From Candidatus Latescibacterota bacterium (lineage in GTDB: Bacteria; Latescibacterota; UBA2968; GCA-2709665): a DNA stretch of 64,000 nt. Position 1 is the stretch's first letter, and each line of letters starts with the position of its first letter. Made by a program: the position numbers and the translations under genes. Positions 17,581-33,752 of this stretch are shown one piece after another. Below the pieces are notes generated by a model that saw only the letters and a program-made list of their open reading frames with translations, was not told the origin of the DNA and ran no database searches. The stretch spans positions 128,001 to 192,000 of the forward strand of contig CBDDDZ010000004.1 in NCBI GenBank assembly GCA_965226795.1, in the 5' to 3' direction.

Positions 17581-17610
17581 GGCTCCGGGTCGCCTGATTC
17601 GGGGCTTTTT
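17581..17610 (+). terminator. Intrinsic terminator
   Basis: GGCTCCGGGTC-GCCT-GATTCGGGGCT stem (with G:U pairs) followed by a T-run. Confidence 0.6.
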
Positions 17611-17725
17611 GTTTTGTGGTGAAAACTCTCAACGGGTCGTTCCGTTACGATTCATCAACTCTTCGATACACATTTGTAACGCGCGGATTTTGGCGTGCAC
17701 TGTTTTAGTGTGGGGCAGGCGAACA

Positions 17726-19033
17726 ATGATTGACATTATCTCCATACCCGCAGAGCAAATTAGCGAAAATGATATTTATGCGCTCATCGACATGGAAGTC
17801 CCGGAGGGCGAGCAAGTCGAATATAAGGAAAGCCTGCGTAAGCGGAGCAATTCACCAGATCCCTGGATTCTTGGGGAGAATAAGATTGGTGAAGGAGCAA
17901 GAAACGAGATACTTGAGGAGGCCGTCGCGTTTGCAAACGCTCACGCCGGTGCTTTGCTGATTGGTATCAGAGAGTCCAAATCCAAGCCGCCGGTCGCGGC
18001 TGAAATAACGCCGGTCCCGCGGTGTGTTGAGTTAGCCGACCGCTTCAGGCTAAACTTTCGTGACTGCGTGGAACCACAAATCCCAAGTCTGGAAGTGTTT
18101 GGCGTTCCAACCGACGGCGAAAGCGGTGTCGTTATTGTTCGAGTTGGGCGATCACGCTTGGCGCCACATCGCGTTGAGCCCACTCGGAAATGTACCGTCC
18201 GGCGAGCAGATCGATGCGAAGGAATGACGATGCGGGAGATTCAAGATATGACACTGAATGTATCAAGGGGAATGGAACGCTTTGATAAACGACTTGAGGA
18301 ACGATCAGAGCGCTTTCGGCGAGAGCTTGGCAGACTCGAAACCCCTGATGATTCGTACGGATTGCGGTTTACCGCACTGCCCGTTGGGGAGGAAGTTCAA
18401 TTCGATCGCGTTTTTCACCAACAAGGGATAATTGATGATTTATATACGCCATGGCGCACTGTGATCTGGAAAAAAGGTAACGATAGCCGACGACTTGACG
18501 GCCTGCCTGAATTTCCACCAATGTACTGGCGGCCAATCCTCCGCGGAGCGCGAGCGGATATTCATCCGTCTGCTAATTCGAATCTGTACACTGGTTATCA
18601 GGAACTTCATTGCGACGGATTGGTAGAGTTGGGCTTTGCGGCATGTAATCAAGTATCACCTCTTGATCCGGATTTGCCTCTTGTCTTGTTTGCCAACACG
18701 GTTGTTTGGGCAAATTATATCAGACGTCAGTCATCGGTGCCTTTGGCGGAATACGGGCTTGAAGTAGAAATACACGTTACGGGGAATTCTGTTCGCGTAG
18801 GGAAATACAATGACCCTATTTTCAAGGCTATGACTGCAAGTGCGGCAGCTCAGGGAGATGATAGAGAAGTAGATAACTATTTTCCCAAAATATCAAATGT
18901 AAAGTTTCCCAAATATTCCCTGGATAGCGAAGAAACACCCGCCAAACTTCTGTCGATATTCAATCAAGATTTCTCGAACTGGTTGGGAAAGTATATCCCG
19001 AGCGAAGGGGAAGAATTCGAAATTAGCGAATGA
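17726..19033 (+). CDS. Schlafen/AlbA_2 domain protein with unassigned C-terminal domain
   Basis: EGEQVEYKE, AVAFANAHAGALLIGI, APH motifs; likely start at ATG 17726. Confidence 0.8.
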   Translation: MIDIISIPAEQISENDIYALIDMEVPEGEQVEYKESLRKRSNSPDPWILGENKIGEGARNEILEEAVAFANAHAGALLIGIRESKSKPPVAAEITPVPRCVELADRFRLNFRDCVEPQIPSLEVFGVPTDGESGVVIVRVGRSRLAPHRVEPTRKCTVRRADRCEGMTMREIQDMTLNVSRGMERFDKRLEERSERFRRELGRLETPDDSYGLRFTALPVGEEVQFDRVFHQQGIIDDLYTPWRTVIWKKGNDSRRLDGLPEFPPMYWRPILRGARADIHPSANSNLYTGYQELHCDGLVELGFAACNQVSPLDPDLPLVLFANTVVWANYIRRQSSVPLAEYGLEVEIHVTGNSVRVGKYNDPIFKAMTASAAAQGDDREVDNYFPKISNVKFPKYSLDSEETPAKLLSIFNQDFSNWLGKYIPSEGEEFEISE

Positions 19034-19205
19034 CGATTTTCAATCAACCCAATCGCCCCGCTTGAGTCGGTCTCGACCAAAAGGTCCGGAGTAGGACAAA
19101 GCAACTCGGTGGCGTCGACGCCCAAACAGTTTTCAGACACGCGTCAGCTTACTGTTACGCATTTGGCACACGTAGAGTCACTGATTTAGATAAGGAAGCA
19201 AGATA

Positions 19206-22200
19206 GTGATTTCGGGCGGCATCGCAAACAAGCTGGGAAACGAATACGAACGCAAGTGGGCGGTTCTTAAGCTCCTCGACGTGATTGCGGGCGAAGCGAA
19301 CGCGATCAGGTACGAGGGCGTACCGGAAGAGTTCCTCGGGTTCGAGTTCGCCCTCCATCTATCGGACTCCGTGGAGTGGCATCAGACCAAGATCAACGCC
19401 CAGGACGCCAACTGGACGCTGAACGCGCTTAAGAGAAATGGCGTCACAGACGCTTTCAAGAGGCGTCTATCGGCCGATGCCGCCGCCAAGTGTGTGTTCG
19501 TTTCTCAAGACCCGGCCAGACAAATGCGAGAACTCTGCAATAAGGCGAGGCTGGGGAACGATGTACACGAGTTTCGGGGAGCGACCTCAAAAAAGGATGG
19601 AGAGACGTTCGATAAACTGGTGGAGATGTGGGATATCGACAAAAGGAATGCGTTCGAATGGCTGCGTCGTTGCGAGTTCCGCACTGAGTCCGAGCGATCA
19701 ATCGAGGAATTTATCGATATGTTCGGCCGGCATCTACTGCGGGGCGAGGCGGATCTCATCCCATCACTATCGAAATATCTGGTGGATAATCTGAATGCTC
19801 CGATCACAACGGAAATCGCACGGGAATGGATCCGAAAATGTAGCCCTTTCACGTTTCGTCCCGGCTCACTTGATCCAACGCTTGGCGAGAATGTCGACGC
19901 GGCCAACCAGAGATATTTGCATAGCTACACGCCTTTCGGCGTGGCGGGCCAGCATATTCCGAGAGCCGAAGCCAGCCATGTTGTTGCCAAATTGCAGACA
20001 GCGGACGGACCATCCCTGATCCTCCTGACGGGGGAGGCGGGCTGCGGCAAGTCAGGTGTTGTACGGGAAGTCATGGATCGCTTAACGACCAACTCAGTGC
20101 CGTACCTTGCGTTCCGCATCGATAAGTACCTTAACTGCCGTTCAAGAACGGAACTGGGTTCGGTCGTTCTGGATCGTGAAGAAAGCCCTGTGAGCGTCCT
20201 GGAACATCTGGCCGGGGGAAGGCCTTCCGTTCTAATCGTGGACCAGATTGACGCGGTGAGCGAGGTTTCGGGCCGTACTGGCGCGATCAAGGATGGCCTG
20301 CGTGAACTGGTTCAAGAAACCCAATATTTCGGGGACGTCCGGTGCATTCTGGTGTGTCGCAGCTTCGATTTGGAACACGATCCGCAATATCGCGAGTTAG
20401 AAAGGGAACACCGGGCTAAGCGGGTGACAGTTAAGCCCCTGTCGTGGGACGATGATGTTGTGCCGGTACTTACGCGTAACGGAATTGGAGCCGAACGCTT
20501 CACAGAAAGCGAGAAACGATTGTTATGTTTACCCCTTAATCTGGCTGTATTTCTTGAAATCGGCGATCCGAATTTTGGCTTCAGCACAGGCACTGCACTG
20601 ATGGAAGGACTGCTCAAAAAGAAAACACGCGATCTACACAGGGACCGCAATGTCGGATGGAACGTCCAGGCTCCGCTGTGTGCGATGGCTAAGTGGATGA
20701 GCGAAAAGCAGGAGTTGAGTTGCCCCGACGCTGTCCTCAATGAATTCGACGGCGCAAAAGACTTGCTGTCCTCGGAAGGGTTAATCGTCACCGAGCAACA
20801 TCGGCTGGCGTTTTTTCATGAGAGCTTTTTCGATTTTATCTTTGCGAGATTGTTCGCAATATCAGGGGACGATATTGTTGCGTTCCTTACCTCGACGGAG
20901 CAGCATCTCTTCCGGCGCACGCAGGTACGCCAGATCCTGACCGCGATGCGGGAAACCAACAAATCACGCTATCTGAGCGCTCTTGCAGACGTTTTGACCA
21001 ATTGCAAAATACGGTTTCACGTCAAACACGCCGTGGCGCAATGGCTTGCTACCGTCCACGATGCGACTCATGGCGAGTTGAAAATCATCCAGTCGCTGGA
21101 CGACGGCGCTGAAGAGTTTCCCATCCTCCTGCGCAGGGCGCTTTTCACGGAAGAGGCGTGGTTTGATCTTCTGAACGAAGGTGGCCATCTAACCCACATG
21201 TTGGAGGATGCGTCGTACCCCAGACGACATTGTATGCTTGGGTGGCTGTCTGTTATCTCCCGAAAGCGTCCGGGCCCGGTCGCGACGGTCTTTAGGCATT
21301 GGTGGCGCAATGATCCTTCGCGGACTGATGAACTCACCGTAAGGTTCCGCCTATGGCGCCGGATTCCGAACAACCCGGAACTCACTGCTCTGCTTCGCGA
21401 TGTGATCTGTTCTCGATCCGATAGTGGTTCCGAGCAATACGATCTGATGGGCCGCATGAGCCTTTTGCTTCCCATTTGGGACACCGAGCCTGAGATAGCA
21501 ATGGGAGTCGTTAAGGAACTCTTCGCCCAATGGTTCGAGGATAACCCTGGCAGCCATCCGTTCAAATACCTATCAAGACCGGTAGGCAACATTAGTGAAA
21601 TGTCGAAAGTCGTCAAAATTACCCCAGCGGTCTTTCTGGATGCGATGATTCCGATGCTCGTAAAGTCCGCTGAGATTGATTCGAACGATGATTCATACAG
21701 CAGCCGTATCCGTATTCGCCACAATCCCGACGCCGACGGTGGACCCGACGCTTTATTGTCGTTTTTCCGCGAAGCCTTTTGCACGCTTGCCGCAAGGTCG
21801 GCAACCGAAGCGGAAGCCCGTCTCGACCGCATCGACCCGACACTCCATCGCGCCGTTACTCACCTGCATCTTGAAACCATTGGCGCGAATCCTGGTGCGT
21901 TGGGACATCGCCTTGAATCGTTACTCGACGGACCGTTTCTCTTCAAGGCAGGCTATGAGCATGCCAAATGGAAGTCATTCGCCACAACAGCCCGATCCGT
22001 CGTTAAGGCGAACGGAGTCGCCGTGCGAACCGTCGAGGAACGCATTCTGAATCATTGCCCCGAATTGGAGGAAGCAACGCAGATTATGGGTATGATCCGG
22101 GCGAACGGAGAGGACGAATTCTTTTTCGTAACAAAGTGCTACGCTTCGAAGTTGCTTAGGCGCTCCGGGCAGGTACAATGGAACGTTTTAAAGACTATAG

Positions 22201-23774
22201 GGAGTGATTTACTTTCCTCTTGCGGCAAGAAGAAACTCGCGGAATTGCAGCGGAAGTTTTCTTCAGAAAGGGTTCCGAAAGCAGATAAAAGAAGCCGTGA
22301 CGGTATCAAGTCGCCGATCCCACGGTCAGCGGCGAAAAAGATGTCAGACGACCAATGGCTTGCTGCAATCAAGAAATACCACCAACGAAATGCTTATGTG
22401 GAGCCAGAAAACGAAACTGTCGTCGGCGGGACTCGTGAACTGGCACGAGAATTGGAAGGCGCTACCAGGTCAAATCCAGGCCGGTTCGCGCGCTTCTTTC
22501 TGCGGTTGCCGGAGGATGCCAGTTCGATATATGGGCAGTGTTTGCTTCAAGGATTGGCGGGTGCGGAGCAGATAGATGAGGACGCCGCAATTGCGGCCCT
22601 GCGTGATGCTCACGCCCGTCCGCGCCGACCATTCGAAATGCAGTTTATTGAGCTTGTAAAGCACCATCCGGCGTGTGGTCGGGACGACGAGGTCTTCAAG
22701 GCACTGCTCTGGTATGCTTCCCACGGAGAAGTTCAAGAAACTTTGGCAACTGACGAGATTGAACATCCTGGAATATGCCCGGCTATTGATGATCTACTCG
22801 AAGCGAATCGAAATCTCTACCTTAAGGGTATCAACTCATCTCGCGGTGTGGCGTGGCAAGCACTAGGCCATGTTGTCGCTCACCAATCCGATCGCGCGAC
22901 CGATTTATGGACTCTCGTCGAATGCCAATCAGCCGCGGAGATCTCGACCTCGATGCGGGCGATGATGCTGTATGCTCTTATTCCACTATACCGCCTTGAC
23001 AGGGATCGGTTCTGCGTATGCCTTAAACGTCTTACAGAACCCATTGCCGGCTTACGTGACGAAATTTCTGCGCTCAAACCACTTGTAACAGACGCAGGGT
23101 TCGATCTTTTTTATTTCATAGAGCGTGATTTCCCGGATCTCGCTGTCGAGTTGATGGAAAGGATGATTGACTCATCGGATTGTACATTGCACCTGGTCGG
23201 GGTATGGTGGGCACTTGCAGAACGCCTGAGGCAGGGTAACACCGCGGACCGATTTGAGGGTATTGAACGGGAGTCGCCCGCCCACTCAAACTTGTGGGCC
23301 TCGATCCTCTGCGATTCGGCCGCGGATACGGAATACCGAGCCATAGCGATATCGGAACTTGCATGGCTTTTCGCACATGATGTTCCTGAGATCCGGAACG
23401 CCGCTGCGGGGGTATTCAGGTGGATACCAGAAAGTGAGCTTCCTGCTTTCTCTGACTTGGCAAAAGCGTTCATTCGATCGGCAACATTCACGGACGGCGA
23501 GGATAACGCCGATGAAGTCATCAGATACCTTGAAAAGGCGTCGCACGACGTAACTGAGCTTGTCTTGGAAGCGAGTGAAGTCGTCTTGCGGGATCGGGGA
23601 GACGGAGGTTCTGATTCCTATCACGGCATTGAGAACCTTCTAAGGCGGGAATACCGGAACTCCGAAAACCGACCAGAGCTTCGCAAGAGGACTCTCGACG
23701 TGATTGACGAAATGGCGGCGAGAAATTTCATTGGCATAGATAATCTGATGCGACTGGATGATCGACAATCATGA
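19206..23774 (+). CDS. Nuclease-STAND NTPase (Avs/AVAST-like antiviral protein)
   Basis: N-terminal G..YE...FEF...WHQTK PD-(D/E)xK-like motif, Walker A GEAGCGKS, Walker B LIVDQID, FFHESFFDF wHTH motif, long helical C-terminus. Confidence 0.75.
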   Translation: MISGGIANKLGNEYERKWAVLKLLDVIAGEANAIRYEGVPEEFLGFEFALHLSDSVEWHQTKINAQDANWTLNALKRNGVTDAFKRRLSADAAAKCVFVSQDPARQMRELCNKARLGNDVHEFRGATSKKDGETFDKLVEMWDIDKRNAFEWLRRCEFRTESERSIEEFIDMFGRHLLRGEADLIPSLSKYLVDNLNAPITTEIAREWIRKCSPFTFRPGSLDPTLGENVDAANQRYLHSYTPFGVAGQHIPRAEASHVVAKLQTADGPSLILLTGEAGCGKSGVVREVMDRLTTNSVPYLAFRIDKYLNCRSRTELGSVVLDREESPVSVLEHLAGGRPSVLIVDQIDAVSEVSGRTGAIKDGLRELVQETQYFGDVRCILVCRSFDLEHDPQYRELEREHRAKRVTVKPLSWDDDVVPVLTRNGIGAERFTESEKRLLCLPLNLAVFLEIGDPNFGFSTGTALMEGLLKKKTRDLHRDRNVGWNVQAPLCAMAKWMSEKQELSCPDAVLNEFDGAKDLLSSEGLIVTEQHRLAFFHESFFDFIFARLFAISGDDIVAFLTSTEQHLFRRTQVRQILTAMRETNKSRYLSALADVLTNCKIRFHVKHAVAQWLATVHDATHGELKIIQSLDDGAEEFPILLRRALFTEEAWFDLLNEGGHLTHMLEDASYPRRHCMLGWLSVISRKRPGPVATVFRHWWRNDPSRTDELTVRFRLWRRIPNNPELTALLRDVICSRSDSGSEQYDLMGRMSLLLPIWDTEPEIAMGVVKELFAQWFEDNPGSHPFKYLSRPVGNISEMSKVVKITPAVFLDAMIPMLVKSAEIDSNDDSYSSRIRIRHNPDADGGPDALLSFFREAFCTLAARSATEAEARLDRIDPTLHRAVTHLHLETIGANPGALGHRLESLLDGPFLFKAGYEHAKWKSFATTARSVVKANGVAVRTVEERILNHCPELEEATQIMGMIRANGEDEFFFVTKCYASKLLRRSGQVQWNVLKTIGSDLLSSCGKKKLAELQRKFSSERVPKADKRSRDGIKSPIPRSAAKKMSDDQWLAAIKKYHQRNAYVEPENETVVGGTRELARELEGATRSNPGRFARFFLRLPEDASSIYGQCLLQGLAGAEQIDEDAAIAALRDAHARPRRPFEMQFIELVKHHPACGRDDEVFKALLWYASHGEVQETLATDEIEHPGICPAIDDLLEANRNLYLKGINSSRGVAWQALGHVVAHQSDRATDLWTLVECQSAAEISTSMRAMMLYALIPLYRLDRDRFCVCLKRLTEPIAGLRDEISALKPLVTDAGFDLFYFIERDFPDLAVELMERMIDSSDCTLHLVGVWWALAERLRQGNTADRFEGIERESPAHSNLWASILCDSAADTEYRAIAISELAWLFAHDVPEIRNAAAGVFRWIPESELPAFSDLAKAFIRSATFTDGEDNADEVIRYLEKASHDVTELVLEASEVVLRDRGDGGSDSYHGIENLLRREYRNSENRPELRKRTLDVIDEMAARNFIGIDNLMRLDDRQS

Positions 23775-23839
23775 ACAAAAAATAGGACGCCGTTTGGAAA
23801 ATACCGAGCCCACACAGCCGACGGGCTTTTGTACCGAGA

Positions 23840-25262
23840 GTGAGGCAATTTCACCTCTCCAATCACCGAGAAACTTTTCTGAGAACGCTGGATTGGACAA
23901 TACAGAGTGCGCCTACTGTTGGAGCTATCCTTCCGGACTGCGTTGTGATAGCGATCAACAAAGAAGCTGAAATCGCGCCTCTAATGTTGGCAGGGCACGA
24001 TGACATTAGTGCCGTTGTCATGCCCGTTTCTCCAGAGAAGTTGCTTGTCGGCATTACGGATGGGTGCGCCCTTCCGCGGTCATTCAACTACAACGTAGAA
24101 GCTGCTCGTGCAAGCTACAGCTTTTTCCTTTCTTCACGTAACAATGCAGAGATCCTCCGCTTGTCCCCGGCGATCGCAGAGCGCTCGATTTTCGTCCTGG
24201 ATGAAGAGGTCGAGAGCGGGATTCAGGACGTTCTGCCCCAAAGTCTTCCTTCACGCCTGGAAGACGACTTAGGGAAGACGGAGCCCACCTATTGTCCCAT
24301 CGACCCCGACTCGAGCAAATTTCAATATGAACTGTCGTTCGACGGAGGCGTAGACCACCAAATAATCCAAGGACAGATCAACCACCTTCGCACCATTGTG
24401 TCGGCGCTTTCACAGGTACTCCCGCTTAGGCGACTAGACGGTATCACTATCGCAGGAGACTACCCCGCAGCACTCCGGAATCTCGATCGCGGTTTTGACA
24501 ATGCCCCACCCGTCGAAACGGTCTCTCCGGAGGTCGGCGTCGGCGTTCGCAAAGATGGTTGCAGTCATGCGGTCCGGCGAAGTCAAAGGTCGCATTGTGA
24601 TATCCAATGCCATTGGCGATGCCCTGACTTCCAATAACGCCGCAGATGCGGAGTTCGGCAACTACGCCGTCGTCAAAGAGCTTGCATTGGTTGCGATGTT
24701 CGAGTACGTCGAGCACGCGCTGCCGGGCGTCTTGCTCAGTTCCGTCGAAGGCAAACTCGACGGTTGGCTGTACGGTCCTGTCGACGCCGCGCTTCATGCC
24801 TATGTTGCCTCTTACATCGCGGCGGGATTCATTGATGAAAAAGAAATGGTAGAAGCCAAACGTCAGCTCTTGGCGGACTGCATTAATCGAATGAGGATTG
24901 ACGTACCAAAAGAAAGGCTCTCGTACCGCGATCACAGAAATCTTGATCAGCTCCTTGATGTCACCCTGCCTGCTATACGTTATGTCTTGTTATTTGCTGC
25001 AGATCTTCTTGGCCACAACGCGGTTTCAGGCCGTTCTGCCTTCCTAGAATCAGACGAACTGCATAATTCGCTTGAGAAGGCTGGGCTCACGAACTGGTTG
25101 GAGACGTACAGAGTCGATCTCATGCAATTTCACAAACAGCTCGGGCGTTGGGGGTCGTTTGATGAGTTTCTTTCTTTCAACGTCCACGTTGAGCGGCTGC
25201 TTTGGCAGTTCGGCATGTTCCCTTGGGAAAAACCAGAAGGAATATGGGTCGAGGTTCGGTGA
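23840..25262 (+). pseudogene. 5'-truncated, frameshifted gene (DUF4238-like C-terminal part plus extra domain)
   Basis: ILPDCVVIA...VVMPVSPEKLLVG...YN.EAAR pattern. ORFs 23840-24637 and 24495-25262 join if one extra base near 24546 is removed. Confidence 0.5.
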
Positions 25263-25437
25263 GGCAGATAACCTCTTTCGATACAATCCGTATAGTCAAT
25301 CGGTGTGGCGGCGCATCCAATCCATCGGCGATCTGCGCAACGATGCGGCCCACGGCGAGGGTTCGACGATTGACCCCGAGGATGTCAAAGACGCCCATCG
25401 TTTCGTGCAACGATTCATCACAGATCACCCGGCGTGA
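25259..25437 (+). pseudogene. C-terminal fragment of a HEPN (DUF4145-like) protein
   Basis: IGDLRNDAAHGE (R-x4-H) with no N-terminus. Confidence 0.6.
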
Positions 25438-25446
25438 AAGCGGACA

Positions 25447-26873
25447 ATGAACAATATTGACGAAAAGACCCTTTCTAACCTGGCCGCTCTTGGCGAAGGC
25501 TATACCATTGAGTTTAAACGCTCGGGCACTTCCGGTCTCGGACGTGAGATATGCGCCTTTGCCAATGCTACTGGAGGCGTGATCCTGATCGGCGTTGCCG
25601 ATGACGGCGGAATCTGCGGTGTTTCCAACCACAACCGCTTGAAGTCCCAGGTCCGATTGCCCGCAGCGCGGAGCCACCTATCGCGTTGGAGATCGAAAGC
25701 GTGGATGACGTGCTCTGTGTGACCGTGCCCGCACAGCAGAGCAAGCCATACTCTTTCGGCGGGAAGTTTTTTATTAAGGAAGGGGCGAGCAGTCAGCAGA
25801 TGTCACGTGAGGAGATTCGGGAATTCTTCTATAAAGAAGGGCTGATCCATTTCGATGAAACCGCGTGTGACAAGTTTTCATTGGAGAGAGACCTCGATGA
25901 AGAGAACTGGTCCCTGTTTCAGGGTCGCGCCAAGATTCCCGAGGATATGGATCCGGAGACCGCGCTTCGCAACCTGCACCTGATGGGTGAAGATGGCCGG
26001 ATGACGCACGCCGGCGCCTGGTTGCTGGCCAGGGACATTCGGAAGTTCAATATCAGCGCGGACGTCGCATGTGCGCTCTTCATGGGAACCGACAAGGTGC
26101 GCATTCTCGACAGGCGCGACTTCCACGGCGACGTCTATTCGATGATTGAAGAGGTGATAGCCTGGATTCTCTCGAAAATCAACGTGGAGTACATCATAAA
26201 GCACGTAAGGCGGGAGGAGCGGCCGGAACTGCCCGAAGAGGCCATTCGCGAGGCGGTCGTCAACGCTCTGGCCCATCGCGACTAACGCTCCACCGCGAAT
26301 GTTCAGATCTATCTGTTCACGGACCGGCTCGAAATCGTCATGCCGGGCGGGTTGCCCGCCGGCATGACGGAAGCGGACCTCGGTATCAAGAGCATACCGC
26401 GCAACCCGCTGTTGTTCGGCATCCTGCACCGCATGGATGCGGTTGAGAGGATCGGTTCCGGCATCCGGCGTATCCGGGACCTGTGCCGCGAACACGGAGT
26501 GGCAGAGCCGCTGATCGAAGTGTCCGAGTCGTGGGTGACAACGACCTTCAGGCGTCCGGTAACCGAGTCCGAGGAGGAAGCTGGGGACAGGTCGGCACTA
26601 AGTCGGCACCAGGTCGGCACCAAGTCGGCACCAAGTCGGCACCAAGTCCAAATCCTGCGTAACTGCCTGACAGAAAAGGCGATAGGGACGTTAATGGCGT
26701 CAGTCAGCAGAAAGGACCGAACCAAGTTCAGGAACCAGGTCCTGAAACCCCTGTTGCAGGGCGGATGGCTGGAAATGACCATTCCAGACAAACCGACCAG
26801 CAGCAAGCAGAAATACAGGCTGACGGACAAGGGACAGCAGCTTCTGGCGGAGTTGGGAGAGGACGATGTCTGA
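25447..26873 (+). pseudogene. AlbA_2-HATPase_c_4-wHTH ('RecG-like') gene with frameshift and nonsense mutation
   Basis: GEGYTIEFK, ICAFANATGG; frameshift near 25654; REAVVNALAHRD followed by TAA at 26283 where Tyr is expected; RNPLL, GSGI, PDKPTSSKQKYRLT. Confidence 0.85.
26588..26648 (+). repeat. 11-bp tandem repeat (CAAGTCGGCAC) x5.5
   Basis: Units begin at 26588, 26599, 26610, 26621, 26632 and 26643 (partial). Confidence 0.95.
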
Positions 26874-27127
26874 AGACGGTACATGGAAAGAGAATCTGAT
26901 TGAAAAAAGAGTGACCTATCACATTGAGTTAGATGGGCAGCTCTTCCTCGTTGAAAACGTCCCGGCGCGCGTCAACGTTGAGACAGGCGAGAAGCACTTC
27001 TCACCGGAGACTGTTGAACGATTGCAGCAAGTGGTGCCTGTCTGCCATCTGCACAGGCAGGTGGGAGCGATGCTGTCCCGTTCGAACCATCGAGACCCCG
27101 GTTTATGAGTATACCTCCCTCGCCTGA
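26866..27127 (+). pseudogene. YgiT-type (MqsA N-terminal-like) small protein disrupted by a 25-bp insertion
   Basis: VTYHIELDGQLFLVENVPARVNVETGE...FSPETVERLQ; insertion at 27037-27061 relative to the paralogue at 32523. Confidence 0.75.
27037..27061. mobile_element. 25-bp palindromic mini-insertion CCTGTCTGCCATCTGCACAGGCAGG
   Basis: Removing it restores GTGGTG|TGGGA, matching the paralogous empty site near 32707-32717; no target-site duplication. Confidence 0.8.
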
Positions 27128-27558
27128 AGGTTCCGGCATCCGGCGTATCCGCGACCTGTGCCGCGAACACGGAGTGGCAGAGCCGTTGATCGAGGTCTCA
27201 GCGTCGTGGGTAACGACAACGTTCCACAGGCCAACCTCAGAATTGGGAACCCGCACCGGGCTAAAGCAAGAGTCAGGCAAGAGTCAGGCAAGAGTCAAGG
27301 CAGGAATCGAGGGCAGAGGGCGTAGAACAACGAGTACTATCGATTCTCCGACAGACTCCCCTGTCCAGATCCGAGATCTCAATCGGTTTGGGCCACAAAT
27401 CCATATCGGGCCGGCTCAACGAGGCGATTCGCCTCTTGATGGATGACAAGCCGATCGAATACACAATTCCAGAAAAACCCAACTGTCGGTTGCAGAAATA
27501 CAGACTTACCGAAAACGGCAAGAGTCGACGGGCAGAATCGGAAGAAGGGCGATCATGA
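27128..27558 (+). pseudogene. Orphan 3' module of an AlbA_2-HATPase-wHTH gene (alternative repeat plus wHTH)
   Basis: 27128-27230 closely matches 26454-26550. GCAAGAGTCA(A)G repeats follow, then an out-of-frame wHTH ending PEKPNCRLQKYRLT. Confidence 0.8.
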
Positions 27559-27588
27559 AACCAATCACCTTTACTGGCAAAGCTCCTC

Positions 27589-27858
27589 ATGGCCGCCGAA
27601 CAGCGAGAAATTATCCGCCTGTTGGCGGAGCGACTCGAGATGATCATGCATCAAGAGCGAGAGATTGGTTTCGCCTTGAAACAGGCGAAATTGCTACGCC
27701 AAGCTATCCTCAAGAAGGCCTTCGCGGGGCAGCTCATCCCGCAAGATCCGGAAGACGAACCTGCATCCATCCTGTTGGAGCGCATCAAAGCATGTAAATC
27801 TGCACCGTCTCAAGTCAACAAGCGAACAAAACGCAGGCGCGAGAAGGCAACAGCATGA
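27589..27858 (+). pseudogene. hsdS C-terminal remnant
   Basis: EQREII...LRQAILKKAFAGQLIPQDPEDEPASILLERIK matches the end of the intact HsdS. Confidence 0.85.
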
Positions 27859-29450
27859 CCGGCAAACTGCCCATCAACATAGACCACCTGCTTCGCCAGC
27901 GCCCCATCGAAGGCGAACGCGTTGAGTACAAAGCGGGCTGGAACCCGCAGAGCGTGCTGCACGCCATCTGCGCCTTCGCCAACGACTTCCACAATCTGGG
28001 CGGTGGATACGTCGTCCTCGGCGTCGAGGAACAAAATGGCCGCCCAGTTTTGCCGCCCAGGGGCATCAGGCCCGATGCCATCGATGCGATACAGAAGGAC
28101 CTGCTGAATCTGGGCAATTCTGCGATCCAGCCCTATTATCACCCGCTCACGGGAACCTACGACGTCGACGGACGGAACATCCTCGTGCTCTGGGCGCCCG
28201 GCGGCGAAACCCGTCCCTATAAAGCCAAAGTGACTCTGAGTGCGCAACGCAGCGAGTGGGCTTACTACATCCGCAGACACAGCAGCACGGTTCGCGCCAG
28301 GGGTCAGGACGAGCGTGAACTGCTCAGTCTGGCGGCCACGGTACCTTTTGATGACCGCTATCGCCAGACTGCATCTCTCGACGACCTGTCCCATCGGCTG
28401 ATCCGTGAGTTTCTAGGGGAAATCGGCAGCGAACTGGCATCGGAAGCAGTGGGCCTGTCTGTTGAGGACCTGGGCAGGCGCCTGAACGTCGTCGGAGGCC
28501 CGCCCGAAGCGATGTTCCCCAAGAACGTCGGGCTGCTTTTCTTCAACGACCGCCCACACGACTTTTTTCCGGCAACCCAGATCGATGTCGTGTGGTTTCC
28601 GGATGGGCCGGGCGGAGATCAGTTCGAGGAGAAGGAGTTCCGTGGGCCGTTGTCCATCATCCTCAGCGAGGCGATCGGCTACATTGAGCGGAACTTTCTG
28701 AAGGAAACCGTCGTCAAGTATCCCCACAAGCCGGAGGCCGAGCGATTCTTGAATTTCCCGATTGGCGCCATTGAAGAGGCGCTGGTGAACGCCATCTACC
28801 ATCGCTCATACGAAGAGCGGGAGCCGGTGGAAGTTCGGATCACCCGCGAAGAATTGCTGGTCTTGAGTTATCCCGGGGCGGACCGCTCCATACCTATGGA
28901 TGACTTCAAGAAGGGGCAGGCCGTGAGCAGGCGCTACCGTAACCGGCGTATCGGTGAATTTCTGAAAGAACTCGACCTCGCCGAGGCCCGCTCAACCGGG
29001 GTGCCGAAGATTTTCCGGTCCATGCGGCAGAACGGCTCACCGGAACCCATCTTCGAAAGCGACGAGGATCGGACCTGGTTTCGAGTGCGTCTGCCTGTGC
29101 ATGAGCGGGCATTACTCGTCGCGACCGGACAAGATACCCAACAAGATAAATCGTTGATAAATAATGAAAAGGGACAAGATACCCAACAAGACACCCAACA
29201 AGACACCGACCATATCGAGCAACTGGTGGCTGTGCTCACTGGAGAGATGAGCCGCGCTAGTATCCAGGCAGGATTGGAACTCAAAGACCGACCCCATTTC
29301 ATTGAAACGTACCTAAAGCCTGCGCTGGAGGCCGGGTTGATTGAAATGACCCTCCCGGACAAGCCCACCAGTCGCCACCAGCGCTATCGCCGAACCGCTC
29401 ACGGCGAGGCACTCGCAGAGCAGATTAAAAGAAAGATCGGCCCTGCATGA
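27855..29450 (+). CDS. Intact AlbA_2-HATPase_c_4-wHTH protein
   Basis: EGERVEYK, ICAFAND, EEALVNAIYHRSY, YRNRRIGEFL, STGVPKI, QDTQ repeats, PDKPTSRHQRY. Confidence 0.9.
   Translation: MTGKLPINIDHLLRQRPIEGERVEYKAGWNPQSVLHAICAFANDFHNLGGGYVVLGVEEQNGRPVLPPRGIRPDAIDAIQKDLLNLGNSAIQPYYHPLTGTYDVDGRNILVLWAPGGETRPYKAKVTLSAQRSEWAYYIRRHSSTVRARGQDERELLSLAATVPFDDRYRQTASLDDLSHRLIREFLGEIGSELASEAVGLSVEDLGRRLNVVGGPPEAMFPKNVGLLFFNDRPHDFFPATQIDVVWFPDGPGGDQFEEKEFRGPLSIILSEAIGYIERNFLKETVVKYPHKPEAERFLNFPIGAIEEALVNAIYHRSYEEREPVEVRITREELLVLSYPGADRSIPMDDFKKGQAVSRRYRNRRIGEFLKELDLAEARSTGVPKIFRSMRQNGSPEPIFESDEDRTWFRVRLPVHERALLVATGQDTQQDKSLINNEKGQDTQQDTQQDTDHIEQLVAVLTGEMSRASIQAGLELKDRPHFIETYLKPALEAGLIEMTLPDKPTSRHQRYRRTAHGEALAEQIKRKIGPA
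29124..29216 (+). repeat. 12-bp tandem repeat (ACCCAACAAGAY-type) in two arms around an AT-rich spacer with an IHF consensus
   Basis: Units at 29124, 29136, 29169, 29181, 29193 and 29205 (degenerate). The reverse complement of 29147-29159 is TATCAACGATTTA, matching WATCAANNNNTTR. Confidence 0.85.
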
Positions 29451-29924
29451 ACACTGCACCCATCGTCGGCAACGTCTGGAGCTTCTGCACCACCTGCGCG
29501 ATGACGGGGTGAGTTATGGCGACTACCTGGAGCAACTCACCCATCTGATCTTCCTCAAGATGTCCGACGAGTACGGCAAACCCCCTACAACCGCGACGTC
29601 GGCATTCCGGCAGGCTTCAACTGGCAAAGCTTGAAGACGAAGAGAGGCGCGGAACTCGACGGCCATTACGCCGCCCTGCTCCGCGAACTCGGGACCAAGA
29701 CGGGCATGCTTGGTCAGATTTTTACCAGGTCCCAAAACAAGATCCAGGACCCTGCAAAGCTATACCGCCTGGTCGACATAGTCGATGACACTGAATGGGT
29801 CACGCTGGGCGCCGACGTAAAGGGAGACATAAACGAAGGGCTTCTTGAGAAGAACGCTGAGGATACCGAATCAGGCACAGGTCAGTATTTCACGCCCCGT
29901 GCTCTCATCCGTGCGATGGTTGAA
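29447..29924 (+). pseudogene. hsdM remnant (5' third, two frameshifts)
   Basis: MNTAPIVGNVWSFC...GQYFTPRALIRAMVE is near-collinear with 14069-14548; single-base losses near 29493 and 29583. Confidence 0.9.
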
Positions 29925-29965
29925 AGACGGCCTCGGTCACACCTGCCTGCCGAGGCCGTCTTTCA
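29921..29965. terminator. Perfect 16-bp inverted repeat, probable terminator
   Basis: TGAAAGACGGCCTCGG / CCGAGGCCGTCTTTCA. Confidence 0.65.
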
Positions 29966-30085
29966 TTTCAGGGACTGCCGGGCGGTCGACAGTTTTCAGT
30001 GATTGCCTGCAAGGGTATCCATGATAGGTGACGCCGATCATTCTGCGGTACCCTGTCTTCCTGCAATCTACTCACGTATAGGAGG

Positions 30086-30274
30086 TTGGTTATGGCTGGA
30101 CCCATGTATGCAGATGAGCTCAGAGATCATCGGACGGATATCAAAGAGCTCCTCGAATTGATCGTTGCACAAAACCACGCAGCAAGGACAGCTCTTGACA
30201 TAGACTGGCATGTTGCAAAGAAGCGAATGGATCCCGTGTTTAAGGAAAGACTCGATAAAGTTCTCAGGCGCTAA
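30086..30274 (+). CDS. Small hypothetical protein
   Basis: GGAGG upstream and a plausible helical 60-aa product; no recognised motif. Confidence 0.35.
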   Translation: MVMAGPMYADELRDHRTDIKELLELIVAQNHAARTALDIDWHVAKKRMDPVFKERLDKVLRR

Positions 30275-30479
30275 CAGGAGAACCGATATTTCTACGTGCG
30301 TGAAGAAACGTCGTCAGTCCGTATGAAATATGGGCGTTTTTCGTAGCTATTCAGCCGTTCACGGAATAAGCTCATTCGTCTTATGTCGCTGCTGTCCAGG
30401 AACGAAGCCGATTTCCGACAGGTGTGACGGAAGGTCTAAACGCAAAAACCACAAATAATGACTCACGCTGGCTGCATAC

Positions 30480-30610
30480 GGTAAAGGCTTGAAATCCCCC
30501 CACCGCATCAGCCGTCGCCGGGCCCTTCGACAAGCTCAGGGGGCGGCTCGGCTTCTGCCTGCCTGTCCTGCGGACGCAGACAGGCGACTCCCCCTCAAGG
30601 GGGAGTGATT
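30480..30610. repeat. Composite REP-like element, copy 1
   Basis: AATCCCCCCACCGCATCAGCCGTCGCC...GGCTCGGCTTCTG...CGACTCCCCCTCAAGGGGGAGT, near-identical to 33588-33752. Confidence 0.85.
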
Positions 30611-30796
30611 GCGACGTGAGCGCACGATAGCCGGTGTGGAATGCCTCCGCGAGGCGGAGTGATCGCGAGGTGTCATTGGGCGGCTCTTCAGTGATACGCC
30701 GACCAGTAACAATTCGCCGAATATTACAAATGTGACTGTACGACGCTCGCGCCGTCCGCTCGCAGCGTTTTTCGACGCGGCTGACAGACTCTTCTC

Positions 30797-30903
30797 TTGA
30801 CCTTTGCGTCCCGATCCTTTAGATTGTCACGTCGCTATCATTCGACAAATGGACGCTCTCTTAACCGTCAATTGGCCGCTTGCTAATCCGACAAATGGAC
30901 GCT
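30797..30903 (+). promoter_or_regulatory. Sigma70-like promoter followed by three 12-bp direct repeats at 23-bp period
   Basis: TTGACC-17bp-TAGATT (30797-30825); CAAWTGGMCGCT at 30846, 30869 and 30892. Confidence 0.65.
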
Positions 30904-32142
30904 AACCGTTCCCTGTTTCTCCGCTCGCTGGAACCCGTAATCCGGGAGGCTTTGGCCGACACGCCGGTGGTCTGCCTGCTCGGACCGCGCCAAAGCGGGA
31001 AAACGACGCTCGTGCAGCAACTTGCGCCAGACCGTGCATACGTCAGCCTGGACGAGCACAACTACCATCAGACCGCCCTGGCCGATCCGGCCGGTTTCGT
31101 CGCCAGCCTGCCGGAGACAGTGACCCTGGACGAGGTGCAACGGGTGCCGGCACTGCTCCCCGCCATCAAGCTCGCCGTGGATCAGGACCGCCGTCCCGGT
31201 CGTTTTGTGCTGACGGGCTCGGCCAATCTATTGCTGGTGCCGACCGTAACCGAATCCCTGGCCGGCCGGATGGAAATGGCGCAATTGCACCCATTGACGG
31301 AATCCGAAAAAGCGCGCGCGCCGGGTCGCTTCCTCAGCGACCTGCTGAACGGCACAATCAAGCCGGGCATCCGACCCGAGGCGGCGCCCGAAGGGCCGTC
31401 GCTGCCGGAGCGACTGGTAGCCGGCGGCTATCCCGAGCCGCTGACTCGCACGCCCGGCCGCGCCCGGCAATGGCACAGGCAGTATCTACGCAGCATCATC
31501 GATCGGGACGTGCAAGACGTGGCGCGGGTGAGAGATGCCCACGAGTTGGCTCGCCTTTTGGAGCTGTTGGCCCTTCGTAGCGCTGAACTATTGAACACCC
31601 TCAATCTGGCCAATACCTTAGGACTGCACCGGTCGACGGTAGATCACTACATCGCCGTACTCGAGCGGCTCTTTCTGGTGCGACGCCTTCCCGCGTGGCA
31701 CCGCAACCCGGCCAAACGGCTCATCAGAACACCAAAGGTCCATCTCCTCGATAGCGGGCTGGCTGCAACCCTCGCCGACCTGACCGCGGACGATTGGCTC
31801 GGCAGGAGGGACCGCATGGGACATCTGTTGGAGTCCTTTGTGGTGCAGCAACTCATTGCCCAGGCCACCTGGACGGAACCGGATTTGCGTTTCTGGCACT
31901 ATCGCGACAAGGATCGGGTGGAAGTCGATGTAGTAATTACCCGGGGCCAGAAGACATGGGGTATTGAAGTCAAAGCCGCCCATGCGCTCACCTCCGGAGA
32001 CGGGAAGGGGCTTGTCCGGCTGGCCGATCGCTGCGGCGAGGATTTCGAGTCCGGCGTACTCCTCTACGCAGGCCGCGATCGACTCCCGTTGGCCGACAAG
32101 CGCATAATCGCAGTGCCGTTGAGCGAATTGTGGGAGCGGTAG
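30895..32142 (+). CDS. AAA_14 ATPase with wHTH and DUF4143 (PD-(D/E)xK) domain
   Basis: GPRQSGKTT, LDEVQR, LTGSA, ESLAGR, GGYP, PKVHLLDSGL, EVDVV..IEVK. Confidence 0.9.
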   Translation: MDANRSLFLRSLEPVIREALADTPVVCLLGPRQSGKTTLVQQLAPDRAYVSLDEHNYHQTALADPAGFVASLPETVTLDEVQRVPALLPAIKLAVDQDRRPGRFVLTGSANLLLVPTVTESLAGRMEMAQLHPLTESEKARAPGRFLSDLLNGTIKPGIRPEAAPEGPSLPERLVAGGYPEPLTRTPGRARQWHRQYLRSIIDRDVQDVARVRDAHELARLLELLALRSAELLNTLNLANTLGLHRSTVDHYIAVLERLFLVRRLPAWHRNPAKRLIRTPKVHLLDSGLAATLADLTADDWLGRRDRMGHLLESFVVQQLIAQATWTEPDLRFWHYRDKDRVEVDVVITRGQKTWGIEVKAAHALTSGDGKGLVRLADRCGEDFESGVLLYAGRDRLPLADKRIIAVPLSELWER

Positions 32143-32190
32143 GGCCTGCCCACTCGTAGCACTGTTCGGCCCGGCTGACCGACTCGACAC

Positions 32191-32530
32191 GTGACTTCGG
32201 CGTCCCCTTCCCTATAGGTTGCCACGTCGCAGCCATTCGACAAATGGACGCTCTCTTAACCGGCAATTGGACGCTAATGAAACAAATGGACGCTAATCAT
32301 TCCCTATTCATCCGCTCGCTGGCGCCCGTAATCCGGGAAGCTCTGGTCGACACGCCGGTGGTCTGTCTGCCCGGACTGCGGCAAAGCGGGTAAACCGCCT
32401 CCAGCCGCTAACGGAATCCGGATCGCTGGAAATGATCATACCGGAAAATCCAACCAGCAGCAAATAGAAATATCGAGTGACAAACAAGGGTCGGCAACTT
32501 CTGTCGGAGTTGGGAGAGGACGATGTCTGA
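32191..32530 (+). pseudogene. Duplicated promoter and 5' end of the AAA-DUF4143 gene fused to a wHTH 3' remnant
   Basis: ~32191-32395 mirrors 30797-31005. ~32397-32530 mirrors 26750-26873 (PENPTSSK*KYRVT). Confidence 0.8.
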
Positions 32531-32778
32531 CGACAGCGCATGGAACGAGACGCTGGTAGGAAAAAAGGTGACCTACCATATTGAGTTCGATGGGCGGCTC
32601 TTCCTCATGAAAACGTCCCGGCGCGATTGAAAACGTCCCGGCGCGAGTCAACGTGGAGACGGGTGAGAAGCACTTCTCACCGGAGACCGTTGAGCGCCTG
32701 CAGCAAGTGGTGTGGGAACGATGCCGTCCCGTTCGCACCATTGAGACTCCGGTTTATGAATACGCGGCCCTGGCCTGA
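32523..32778 (+). pseudogene. YgiT-type small protein, second copy, frameshifted by a 19-bp tandem duplication
   Basis: TGAAAACGTCCCGGCGCGA occurs at 32608 and 32628. Confidence 0.75.
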
Positions 32779-33000
32779 AGGGCCTGCCTGCCGCGCTCAC
32801 CGCGGCGCACGCAGGTCGGATTGCGATGCCGAAAGAGCGCCTATGTTGCGATATTGTGATACGACCTGCCGGGATTGCAGCCTCTCGCCGGCTTTGCGTG
32901 CAGGCAGTAATAATCGATTGTTGAGCGATCAATCAAGCTTCTGTGTGAACAGTCGGGCAAACTGACCGGATGATTTTGCGCCCGGATCTGGATAAACGGT

Positions 33001-33252
33001 ATGAAGACAACGCGCTACTTCAAGGAGCAGGTGTTGCGCAAGCGCCCATACATCAATCCTCACTGGTGCGTTGACGTCATCGCCTCCCCGCTTCGACGCG
33101 AAAGACAGCCGGACGGTCGTATCCGCTTCCGGGGCCAGGTCTCCCGCCCGGGAGAAGAGATGCTACGCATTCTGCGAGTCGTAACGTTGGATGATGGTGA
33201 GACCATCCACAACGCTTTCATTGATCGCGGTTTTCGAAAGGAAAGACCATGA
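33001..33252 (+). CDS. Putative TA toxin (RelE/BrnT-like fold)
   Basis: LRVVTLDDGETIHNAFIDRGF; ATGA overlap with the DUF2283 gene. Confidence 0.6.
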   Translation: MKTTRYFKEQVLRKRPYINPHWCVDVIASPLRRERQPDGRIRFRGQVSRPGEEMLRILRVVTLDDGETIHNAFIDRGFRKERP

Positions 33253-33464
33253 AACTTCATTACTATCCGGAAACCGATAGCCTGTATGTCGAGTTCAAAT
33301 CCGGACCAGGGACCGAAACGCGAGAGGTTGCCAGTGGGCTGAACGTCGATCTCGACGCCAACGGAGATGTCGTAGGCTTCGACATCGACGAGGCCTCCAA
33401 GCGCCTGGACCTTTCCACACTTGAAACGGAGGCGCTGCCGGTACGCGCTTACAAGGTGGGCTGA
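33249..33464 (+). CDS. DUF2283 domain antitoxin-like protein
   Basis: MKLHYYPETDSLYVEF...NVDLDANGDVVGFDI. Confidence 0.85.
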   Translation: MKLHYYPETDSLYVEFKSGPGTETREVASGLNVDLDANGDVVGFDIDEASKRLDLSTLETEALPVRAYKVG

Positions 33465-33587: not shown

Positions 33588-33752
33588 GGTAAGGCGTTGA
33601 AATCCCCCCACCGCATCAGCCGTCGCCGGCCCTTCGACCCTTCGACAGGCTCAGGGACCGCAGGCTCAGGACAAGGCTCAGGGCCCGGCTCGGCTTCTGC
33701 CTGCCTGTCCTGCGGACGCAGGCAGGCGACTCCCCCTCAAGGGGGGAGTAAT
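33588..33752. repeat. Composite REP-like element, copy 2 (extra nested units)
   Basis: Same scaffold as 30480-30610, but the loop holds iterated CTTCGAC/GCTCAGG units. Confidence 0.85.

Follow-up and report, generated by a model that had tools for sequence, protein, structure and literature searches.

Three copies of one winged helix-turn-helix (wHTH) domain are encoded close together in this DNA, and each is preceded by a short tandem array of a different sequence. This locus raises the question of whether each wHTH recognizes the array in its own gene, and what a binding site within a coding sequence would do for the protein.

Genes and arrays of the locus

The PF21247 wHTH profile has three matches above its cut-off within the window (the whole stretch of 64,000 nucleotides analyzed here); all the features described below are on the forward strand. 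The original prediction placed three AlbA_2-HATPase-wHTH genes here, but only gene 3 (27855–29450) is intact. Gene 1 is broken, and the second unit is an orphan 3′ cassette.

Gene 3 encodes a 531-residue Schlafen-GHKL ATPase ('Schlatpase') with a wHTH (SLFN_AlbA_2, HATPase_c_4 and Fic-like_C). The AlbA_2 domain (PF04326, E 1.5e-10) is followed by HATPase_c_4 (PF13749, E 1.5e-9), both above cut-off. The catalytic motif is E19x4E24xK26 (EGERVEYK, residues 19–26), and an N-box-like segment, EALVNAIYHR, is located at residues 308–317. The Ex4(E/D)xK motif, as defined in PMC13056530, is present in 112 of 120 relatives. The domain order and the Ex4ExK motif are the same as in Schlatpases (PF04326 and PF13749) with a C-terminal HTH and in the pSlfn HisKinase-HTH class (10.64898/2026.05.29.728809; PMC13056530). 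An identity as SLFN-pAgo was rejected; the PADLOC pAgo match spans only profile positions 56–459 of 1121 (the N-terminal part), and the PAZ-MID-PIWI core was not found in it. The model of wHTH 3 (29208–29396) has a pLDDT of 94.5 and a winged-helix fold, in which D478-R479-P480 (29286–29294) open helix 3 as its N-cap and first turn. The Fic protein Dde_2494 (PDB 4RGL) has the same wHTH (TM 0.87, E 4.5e-6), and its chain carries a DQVTDQV linker before an H-R-P-T helix.

Gene 1 (25447–26873), a Schlafen(AlbA_2)-GHKL ATPase-wHTH gene, keeps the Ex4ExK motif. It has a 4-nt gap near 25655 compared to a relative (L302) and an in-frame stop at 26283–26285, and full-length orthologs with more than 90% identity are found in same-genus genomes. 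Both lesions are carried by sequencing run X1, which may be the source sample itself. The predicted specificity residues of wHTH 1 (26643–26825) are D-R-T, at 26715–26723. A small YgiT-type zinc-finger-like ORF (26866–27108; TIGR03831, E 1.4e-4, above cut-off) comes next; in relatives it lies 3′ of type A and type C cassettes. The orphan cassette (type B, 27129–27558) consists of an ATPase tail copy, array 2 and wHTH 2, without a Schlafen domain. The tail is a 96-nt copy of that of gene 1 (89.6% identical) and is in a different frame from the wHTH. wHTH 2 (27331–27510) belongs to a divergent PF21247 subfamily, with H-K-S-I-S-G-R-L. Exact pieces of genes 1 and 3 are present in RNA run X19, which is not a sign of transcription.

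Gene 3 is surrounded by defense and type I restriction-modification (RM) remnants. These include the 3′ remnant of an hsdS specificity gene (27589–27858; PADLOC Specificity_I, E 3e-23) and the broken 5′ remnant of an hsdM methyltransferase gene (29447–30002; PADLOC MTase_I, E 1.7e-32 for 29631–29999). A fourth, truncated wHTH remnant (32387–32482) contains a stop, has no array and lies next to a YgiT-like remnant.

Array 1 (26588–26648, cassette type A) is built of 11-bp CGGCACYARGT units with the core CACC and is translated in all three frames (TRF: 26591–26648, period 11, 5.3 copies). Array 2 (27266–27312) contains GCAAGAGTCAG units, two of 11 bp and then 12 bp (TRF: 27266–27302, period 11, 3.3 copies). 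The family unit of array 2 is of the 12-bp xxGCCAGAGTCx / AAGGCAAGAGTC type, found at that length in 19 of 22 arrays, and the 11-bp unit is a local variant. Array 3 (29124–29215) has 12-bp ACC-CAAC-AAG-AY units at 29136, 29181 and 29193 and degenerate units at 29124, 29169 and 29205 (TRF: 29174–29207, period 12, 2.8 copies, with extra units at 29124 and 29136). The three arrays are the top three of the 345 185-nt tiles of the window (scores 31.5, 21 and 19.5, with a median of 6.5), and each outscores all 300 shuffles of its own region. TRF and the tile ranking thus bear out the arrays as originally described, and the helix motifs DRTKFRNQVL, SISGRLNEAI and DRPHFIETYL and the P(D/E)KP...Q.YR tail are present as claimed. 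Six other Schlafen-ATPase-like genes of the same genome have neither this wHTH nor an array (scores of at most 7, compared to 19.5–39.5).

Pairing and exchange in the PF21247 family

The PF21247-type wHTH forms 11,977 clusters at 50% identity (E ≤ 0.001). The module had been described as a feature of Schlafen-HATPase genes, but it is also found on Fic and DUF4062-ATPase proteins. The carriers often lie in type I RM operons, with HsdR (9 of 48) or HsdM (6 of 48) downstream and HsdS (8 of 52) upstream.

In 246 of 279 PF21247 loci, the 185 nt upstream of the wHTH contain an array. The other 33 score under the array threshold, and in some multi-wHTH proteins arrays are not obvious by eye. In the control regions, arrays are found in 0 of 279 loci inside the wHTH, 5 of 270 further upstream and 16 of 269 downstream. 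The gap between the array and helix 1 has a median of 4 nt, at least 37 distinct cores are present, and copy numbers of 3 (59) and 4 (48) are the commonest among 177 arrays. A period of about one helical turn had been proposed. This describes the family only loosely, as 217 of the 246 family arrays have a 12-bp, codon-compatible period; 21 of the 246 have an 11-bp period, a unit length that is not a multiple of 3.

In same-genus relatives, array-wHTH cassettes have been swapped on gene bodies with more than 90% identity, leaving relic arrays behind, in agreement with the proposed exchange of array and wHTH as a single unit. Among 22 cassettes from the genus and family, the proximal array fits its own wHTH in 21, and relic arrays of another type lie upstream in 14. 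Crossovers are located inside arrays, and orphan cassettes are common in the genus. Copy number differs between strains, as runs X3 and X6 lack 22 nt (two units) at 26613. Type B cassettes contain 0, 1, 2 (in the window) or 3 11-bp units, and the one with three units (L559) shares the reading frame of the ATPase tail.

These crossovers, orphan cassettes, missing units and variable type B cassettes would suit arrays that serve primarily as switches, where 11-bp slippage moves the wHTH in and out of frame, or where orphan cassettes recombine onto a gene body. Frame shifting is impossible with the 12-bp arrays, however, the frame changes are seen in decayed or orphan copies, and the residue-base correspondence described below is left unexplained. 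Such a primary role is very improbable.

Similar T-x-Q/E-V arrays also arise in viral genes. Three-unit viral matches are without a wHTH in 120 of at least 121 loci (41 loci with short flanks). The four-unit matches (ACC/AA 71, ACA 30, ACT 15 and ACC/AG 7) are redundant counts and not normalized, and they are therefore taken as generic low-complexity repeats. The viral matches thus give no support to phage decoy arrays.

Residues of the recognition helix and bases of the repeat

The family unit is ACC-N1N2N3N4-AAG-TN, with the variable bases N1–N4 at site positions 4–7. Residues 478–480, with which the recognition helix begins, predict N1 in 167 of 176 cases, N4 in 143 of 147 and N3 in 109 of 134. 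Of 780 residue-base pairs ranked at 90% dereplication, the five strongest all connect residues 478–480 with site positions 4–7; about half of the 21 11-bp arrays were out of register in this ranking, and the rule counts use the corrected register. The correspondence at N3 is leaky (Lys480 with C 45, A 10, T 6 and G 2), and Asn478 is divided between A and G. The covariation expected from the original prediction is found, in the form of a three-residue code, and it supports the match of each wHTH to its own array. As three wHTH residues change with the repeat bases, each protein likely grips its own gene.

From the chemistry of these pairs, residue 478 would read the sense strand (Asp with C, His with G, Asn with a purine), and residues 479 and 480 would read the antisense strand (Arg/Lys with G, Asp/Glu with C), which implies that both strands may be read. 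One wHTH very likely binds each 11–12-bp unit, in the major groove.

An adjacent array and wHTH could also covary by traveling together in recombination, the array being a flexible linker made by slippage, with no role in binding. The cassettes do swap as blocks, unit number slips between strains, and the viral arrays arise without a wHTH, in keeping with this idea. Linkage, however, predicts covariation with all wHTH columns, while the signal is concentrated on residues 478–480. Where a wHTH and its nearest wHTH neighbor (chosen with the specificity columns removed) are discordant, the base follows the protein's own residue in 49 of 52, 15 of 16 and 18 of 24 cases (N1, N4 and N3), and the neighbor's residue in 4, 0 and 2. 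Moreover, one code is found on both Fic and Schlafen bodies across many phyla, a wobble base tracks a single residue, the pairings correspond to canonical base-contact chemistry, and the N1 rule is tighter in the three proximal copies (obeyed by 92–95%) than in the distal copies (67–77%). Hitch-hiking is consequently an improbable explanation.

In 4 of 120 proteins the linker, helix or anchor could not be parsed. The tree of the remaining 116 gene 3 relatives uses the Schlafen-ATPase part alone and gives 8 concordant independent pairs, 0 opposite and 7 with no difference (median p 0.008). The protein-level N1 call for this tree is noisy, with 25 C and 21 G by majority in the Asp class when degenerate units are counted. 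On the short tree from the wHTH alone the independent pairs are underpowered, with 4, 1 and 1 supported, none opposite and no significance. The rules were first spotted by eye on the same loci, so only seven loci count as a true hold-out; there N1 is correct in 5 of 6, N4 in 5 of 5 and N3 in 3 of 5, with one clear miss (L554). Among the Fic carriers alone the rules hold in 29 of 29, 29 of 29 and 22 of 25 cases, and they also hold in the non-Fic carriers. Co-resident genes share a core in 2 of 39 pairs compared to 4.3 expected (P 0.17), and avoidance of each other's sites is not significant.

Codon usage within the arrays is strongly biased. The Gln codons are CAA 423 and CAG 24 (466 and 893 in the rest of the genes), and the Glu codons are GAA in 179 cases with 1 exception (1368 and 1460 in the rest). 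The Pro wobble base gives CCC in 43 of 54 Lys480 loci and CCG in 17 of 17 Glu480 loci. With N3 a wobble base and the synonymous codons locked, selection acts on the DNA. This agrees with the earlier view that DNA rather than peptide is conserved, as does the reading of 11-bp arrays in all frames.

Recognition of the array as RNA or peptide, with the wHTH binding its own transcript at the repeats or the linker peptide that they encode (TPQV and similar), has in its favor that the repeats are coding, that 154 of 160 12-bp arrays keep one codon frame, and that Schlafen proteins act on RNA. The wobble base differs with residue 480 over an identical peptide, however, 11-bp arrays are translated in all frames, and the L554 core is in another frame. 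In addition, the fold is that of a DNA-binding wHTH, and the code, as its chemistry is generally understood, requires contacts on both strands. This reading is extremely improbable.

Within 300 nt upstream of the gene start, the protein's own site is found in 0 of 101 cases exactly, 1 of 101 with at most one mismatch (control 1.0) and 10 of 101 with at most two (control 7.2); downstream copies are not enriched either. Without enrichment of the site near gene starts, repression through an ordinary operator is excluded. In classical autoregulation (CccR, C-proteins, antitoxins), by comparison, the site is at or near the promoter.

A proposed clamp on the gene's own DNA

We favor the explanation that the array is the predicted double-stranded DNA binding site of the adjoining wHTH, and that the cassette is probably a safety clamp in cis on what is probably a toxic defense enzyme. 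With moderate confidence, the self-bound protein would be a roadblock and a tether on its own gene. Protein on 3–6 sites near the 3′ end of the gene would stop RNA polymerase ahead of the wHTH sequence and lead to a non-stop mRNA and a tmRNA-tagged product, as for LacI. The few existing protomers would be retained on the DNA instead of joining the ATP-driven tetramer required by Schlafen-GHKL domains for tRNA cutting. In this way, the DNA of the gene itself would set an upper limit on copy number and activity. A strong roadblock would also be polar on the hsdR or hsdM genes that are often next downstream, which counts against a clamp.

The protein may instead bind its own array as an assembly scaffold or an address, which nucleates the active oligomer or parks the enzyme at an RM or defense locus until a separate phage cue activates it through the ATPase. 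The covariation fits this equally well, the commonest copy numbers of 3 and 4 would suit a tetramer, no polarity on hsdR would follow, and a results heading of PMC10628234 reads 'DNA binding stimulates CbFic2 activity'. Activation by the always-present own DNA would, however, be suicidal unless there is another brake, and the array has the fixed position that a truncating roadblock requires, directly 5′ of the wHTH codons. We consider a scaffold or address rather unlikely.

For the favored clamp, release of the enzyme upon DNA loss is speculative. It is conceivable, though we would not expect it, that the cassette is a widespread and modular sensor tethered to self DNA. A Schlafen tRNase, Fic AMPylase or DUF4062 effector would be scarce and inactive on its private array and be freed by phage-driven chromosome degradation, DNA-mimic proteins or loss of the locus, leading to abortive infection or addiction. 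Diversification of the code would let each gene guard its own DNA.

Parts of this scheme have counterparts in other systems. In plasmid Rep-iteron and RM C-protein/C-box pairs, wHTH or HTH monomers read co-evolving direct repeats with private specificity. Those sites are in origins or promoters, whereas the arrays here lie in frame within the gene of their reader and travel with it from one effector body to another, unrelated one. PrrC and RloC are guards of type I RM loci. Retron-Eco1 and RzAgo are nucleic-acid-caged toxic effectors (10.64898/2026.05.29.728809, discussion). Compared to these four, the proposed restraint is the chromosomal gene itself; an msDNA, guide RNA or partner protein is neither needed nor conserved. 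In a filament RzAgo is kept inactive, and it becomes active as a GHKL tetramer; an ATP-driven tetramer, tRNA cleavage and anti-phage activity have been shown only for RzAgo and pSlfn5/7, according to the parts of 10.64898/2026.05.29.728809 and PMC13056530 covered. In those of PMC13056530, two pSlfn1 (Schlafen-HisKinase) genes gave no defense, and the list of tested architectures does not include the HTH-bearing class.

From the portions of PMC10628234 covered, CbFic2 is proposed to become a deAMPylating dimer when its C-terminal HTH binds DNA, and this also couples DNA binding to a toxic enzyme. The DNA used there with CbFic2 was non-specific, and the targets of CccR are promoter palindromes; the site predicted here is a direct-repeat array in coding sequence, absent from the promoter. 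LacI binding within lacI raises trans-translation (PMC13584721 in part, citing Abo 2000). It too has a site inside its own coding sequence that could truncate the mRNA, the cognate status here coming from covariation. The LacI site is a single palindromic auxiliary operator of another operon, in contrast to the private 3–6 direct repeats here, which also make up the linker of the protein itself and have at least 37 cores and a matching code.

A literature search covering few subscription papers found no description of these arrays. They are likewise not described in the passages and 11 of 26 supplementary files of PMC13056530 or in the text and some Extended Data legends of 10.64898/2026.05.29.728809, where the DNA target of the HTH and a recognition code are also not described. 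The proteins belong to known families, and any novelty lies in the array-reader cassette. We have not found a description of such an arrangement, in which a single stretch of DNA encodes a reader together with its predicted binding array, follows a simple residue-base code and is exchanged among unrelated toxic enzymes. In the same sources, Schlafen-GHKL proteins make up 58.6% of 103,533 prokaryotic Schlafen proteins (10.64898/2026.05.29.728809), and the HisKinase-HTH class 19.2% of 5,930 (PMC13056530). For the PF21247-type wHTH, a specific predicted DNA target can now be named gene by gene. Codon-optimized synthesis of these genes would erase the predicted site. If true, the three-residue/four-base code would also provide a small programmable DNA-binding domain.

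Tandem arrays in a decaying defense island

The original prediction placed a short tandem array ahead of each of three wHTH domains in the window. All three arrays are present at those places and, of 345 tiles ranked by periodicity, are the top three, each exceeding 300 shuffles. Three AlbA_2-HATPase-wHTH genes had also been described, of which only gene 3 (27855–29450) is intact, encoding an AlbA_2-HATPase_c_4-wHTH protein with Ex4ExK. Gene 1 (25447–26873) is disrupted at two places. The middle unit (27129–27558) is not a full gene: it comprises only a copy of gene 1's ATPase tail followed by an array and a wHTH, with tail and wHTH in different frames. For arrays 1 and 2, perfect units are found nowhere but in their own genes, and the 11-mer of array 3 has two further occurrences, compared to about one expected. 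There are four matches to PF21247 (Fic-like_C) in the whole 5.4-Mb genome, all in this region. Six further Schlafen-ATPase-like genes in this genome are without this wHTH, and no array was found in any of them.

The region is a decaying defense island (17609–33464). Upstream of the arrays are Schlafen and NACHT genes, including a second Schlafen gene (17609–19033) and the gene for a NACHT-like protein of 1522 amino acids (19206–23774), together with a HEPN-like remnant (about 25270–25437). Remnants of hsdS and hsdM flank gene 3. Downstream of the arrays is a PDC-S01-type AAA_14-DUF4143 gene (30880–32142), of which a partial second copy is also present, and a DUF2283 gene pair is located at 33001–33464. 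Both AAA_14-DUF4143 copies are preceded by repeated ACAAATGGACGCT words (30847–30905 and about 32238–32290), which may be a further site of direct repeats at the beginning of a gene.

A small YgiT-type zinc-finger-like ORF is found at 26866–27108 and about 32520–32710. In most same-genus loci it follows type A and C cassettes (see below) and overlaps the Schlafen-ATPase stop, and it may be a partner or may travel together with the cassette. A perfect 20-bp tandem duplication in the YgiT-like remnant (32608–32646) likely reflects decay. A short inverted-repeat element, of the CCTGCCTGTC...CAGACAGG type, recurs at about 30540–30590 and 33640–33730. It is inserted in relatives of gene 1, at 26521 in one sequencing run (X6) and in locus L306, and resembles a REP/MITE-type repeat belonging to this lineage.

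Association and exchange of array and wHTH

A total of 294 loci were collected, from a search of 168 same-phylum genomes and from genome, metagenome and viral contigs. The 311 profile hits gave 279 distinct loci that carry the anchor motif and have sufficient sequence upstream. With an array called at a tandem score of at least 12, 246 of these 279 loci have one within 185 nt upstream of the wHTH. Scores at this level are found elsewhere in 0/279 loci within the wHTH, 5/270 farther upstream and 16/269 downstream. The period is 12 bp in 217 arrays, 11 bp in 21 and other in 8, with usually 3–6 copies and a median gap of 4 nt between the array end and helix 1. The 33 sub-threshold loci include 16 that are broken or short; at least two core words are present in 24 of the 33, compared to 11 of 31 control stretches. 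In the divergent subfamily to which wHTH 2 belongs, 22 of 25 loci have arrays of their own, mostly with a 12-bp xxGCCAGAGTCx unit.

Named carriers of array and wHTH belong to about 20 phyla, including one archaeon. By motif, 20 of 139 representatives are Fic proteins, and 21 of 139 are too short for scanning. The 97 other distinct representatives scanned include 69 Schlafen, 4 DUF4062, 2 Fic, 17 ATPase-only or truncated, and 5 wHTH-only proteins. Five collected proteins (P0121, P0171, P0182, P0202 and P0206) consist of this wHTH repeated 4–8 times in tandem, the recognition helices differing between copies; they show no obvious arrays and no effector domain, and are possibly multi-finger DNA readers. 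In viral contigs (L308–L428), ACC-NNNN-AAG-TN arrays without the wHTH are found in 120 of 121 genes among the matches listed. The viral ACC/AA codon form exceeds its synonymous controls (71 versus 30, 15 and 7), in redundant counts on which a decoy role is no more than tentative.

As had been proposed, the array and the wHTH are exchanged as one unit. Orthologs of gene 1 share a body that is more than 90% identical in its middle part, and end in three alternative 3′ cassettes: A (11-bp CGGCACCAAGT, with D-R-T-K), B (CAAGAGTC type, with S-V-S-G-R-L) and C (ACCGCACAAGT, with H-R-K-T). The array adjoining the wHTH is of the matching type in 21 of 22 cassettes, and arrays of other types, in several orders, are located farther upstream in 14 of 22. 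Across families, the N1 rule (see below) holds for 92–95% in the three proximal copies and 67–77% in more distal copies. In tandem wHTH proteins, array and wHTH are usually duplicated together, as judged by eye. The number of units differs between strains, and 11-bp units can thereby shift the frame; we read both changes as a by-product.

Orphan cassettes (ATPase tail, array and wHTH) are recurrent in same-genus and same-family genomes (L295–L307), with four type B copies in one of these genomes (G056). They resemble the silent C-terminal cassettes carried by polymorphic systems, and may recombine onto the gene body.

A residue-base code

The proposed covariation between the repeat sequence and the recognition helix is observed, between wHTH residues 478–480 (gene 3 numbering) and the four variable bases of the 12-bp unit, ACC-N1N2N3N4-AAG-TN, which has 37 cores among 177 representatives. 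The corrected mutual information, over 780 residue-base pairs, is strongest for D478-N1, R479-N4, P480-N2, P480-N3 and D478-N2. In the AlphaFold2 model (pLDDT 94.5), helix 3 begins with residues 478–480, which make up its N-cap and first turn. The model fold of the wHTH matches that of the Fic protein 4RGL, with weaker matches to winged helices of the MarR/Sso10a type.

Residue 478 corresponds to N1 (Asp to C, His/Gly/Ser to G, Asn to A or G) in 167/176 cases, residue 479 to N4 (Arg to C, Asp/Glu to G) in 143/147, and residue 480 to N3 (Lys/Arg/Thr to C, Asp/Glu to G) in 109/134, counts that are descriptive as the rules were derived from the same loci. Genes 1 and 3 fit the code, having D-R-T with CACC and D-R-P with CAAC, respectively. 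For seven later-fetched loci the rules hold in 5/6 (N1), 5/5 (N4) and 3/5 (N3). A clear miss is a Fic gene on a Bacteroides finegoldii plasmid (L554), which violates two of the three rules. Its 12-bp unit (ACCCCGACAAGT) retains the CAAGT core in a different reading frame (TPTS), perhaps representing a subfamily with a shifted register.

In base contacts, Asp and Glu pair with C, Arg, Lys and His with G, and Asn with A. By this chemistry, residue 478 would read the sense strand and residues 479–480 the antisense strand, and the reading of both strands points to duplex DNA as the recognized form of the array.

With wHTH neighbors chosen on all columns except those for specificity, the nearest neighbor predicts N1 in 118/176 cases, compared to 167/176 for the protein's own residue. 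Where residue and neighbor are discordant, the base matches the own residue in 49/52 (N1), 15/16 (N4) and 18/24 (N3). On a tree built from the Schlafen-ATPase portion of 116 gene 3 relatives, residue 478 has changed at least 49 times. Of the independent pairs on this tree, 8 agree with the association, 0 oppose it and 7 show no change (median p 0.008), a result also compatible with block exchange; the short wHTH tree has too few supported pairs for this test. The rules are valid separately in Fic carriers, non-Fic carriers and each of four data sources.

Synonymous codons in the arrays are fixed relative to gene-wide usage (CAA 423:CAG 24, GAA 179:GAG 1, CAT 39:CAC 0, ACC 497/540). Slippage from one ancestral unit could produce this codon lock. 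However, the proline wobble base tracks residue 480 (CCC in 43/54 with Lys, CCG in 17/17 with Glu), a switch that slippage leaves unexplained. Judged from these sequence comparisons, the covariation appears to be more than linkage and not to arise at the peptide level.

Binding of the array and its possible function

Binding of the wHTH to the array of its own gene is the sole reading that would cover the position, the code, the wobble lock and the cassette behavior, and is very probable; non-binding explanations, taken together, are quite improbable. Searched upstream of gene starts, the promoter region does not carry the site a second time, and any feedback would thus have to come from the array, about 1.3 kb from the start of the gene. 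There, bound protein may form a clamp, blocking RNA polymerase just ahead of the wHTH codons. Synthesis would halt once 3–6 sites are occupied, so that most molecules would be on the array.

We consider this clamp moderately likely, and precedents in the available portions of published reports make it plausible by analogy. RNA polymerase blocks by bound protein are reported to release the transcript for trans-translation, with LacI within lacI cited (PMC13584721). In RzAgo, the GHKL domain drives an active tetramer, and a nucleic-acid-bound filament separates the Schlafen domains (10.64898/2026.05.29.728809). A switch to a deAMPylating dimer on DNA has been proposed for CbFic2 (PMC10628234), and TrlG, an AlbA_2-HATPase_c_4 protein, shows conditional growth restriction (10.1101/2020.06.02.129163). 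Against the clamp, hsdR or hsdM is directly downstream in at least 15 of 48 loci and would be exposed to polarity, and the Schlafen-HisKinase genes assayed gave no defense, in the available part of that study (PMC13056530). The array may instead be a scaffold or address for the wHTH protein, which we regard as unlikely. The sensor function of the original prediction, with the protein released from the array upon degradation of host DNA, is a tentative suggestion.

The proteins are ordinary members of the Schlatpase-HTH (Schlafen-GHKL ATPase) and Fic/PF21247 families. No description of the array-reader cassette and its code was found in the full-text literature, most subscription journals being outside reach. 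LacI-O3, Rep-iterons, promoter-binding Fic repressors and nucleic-acid-caged effectors each have only one feature in common with it. The arrays are a real feature of these genes, and the sequence evidence strongly supports the prediction that they are a self-encoded binding site.
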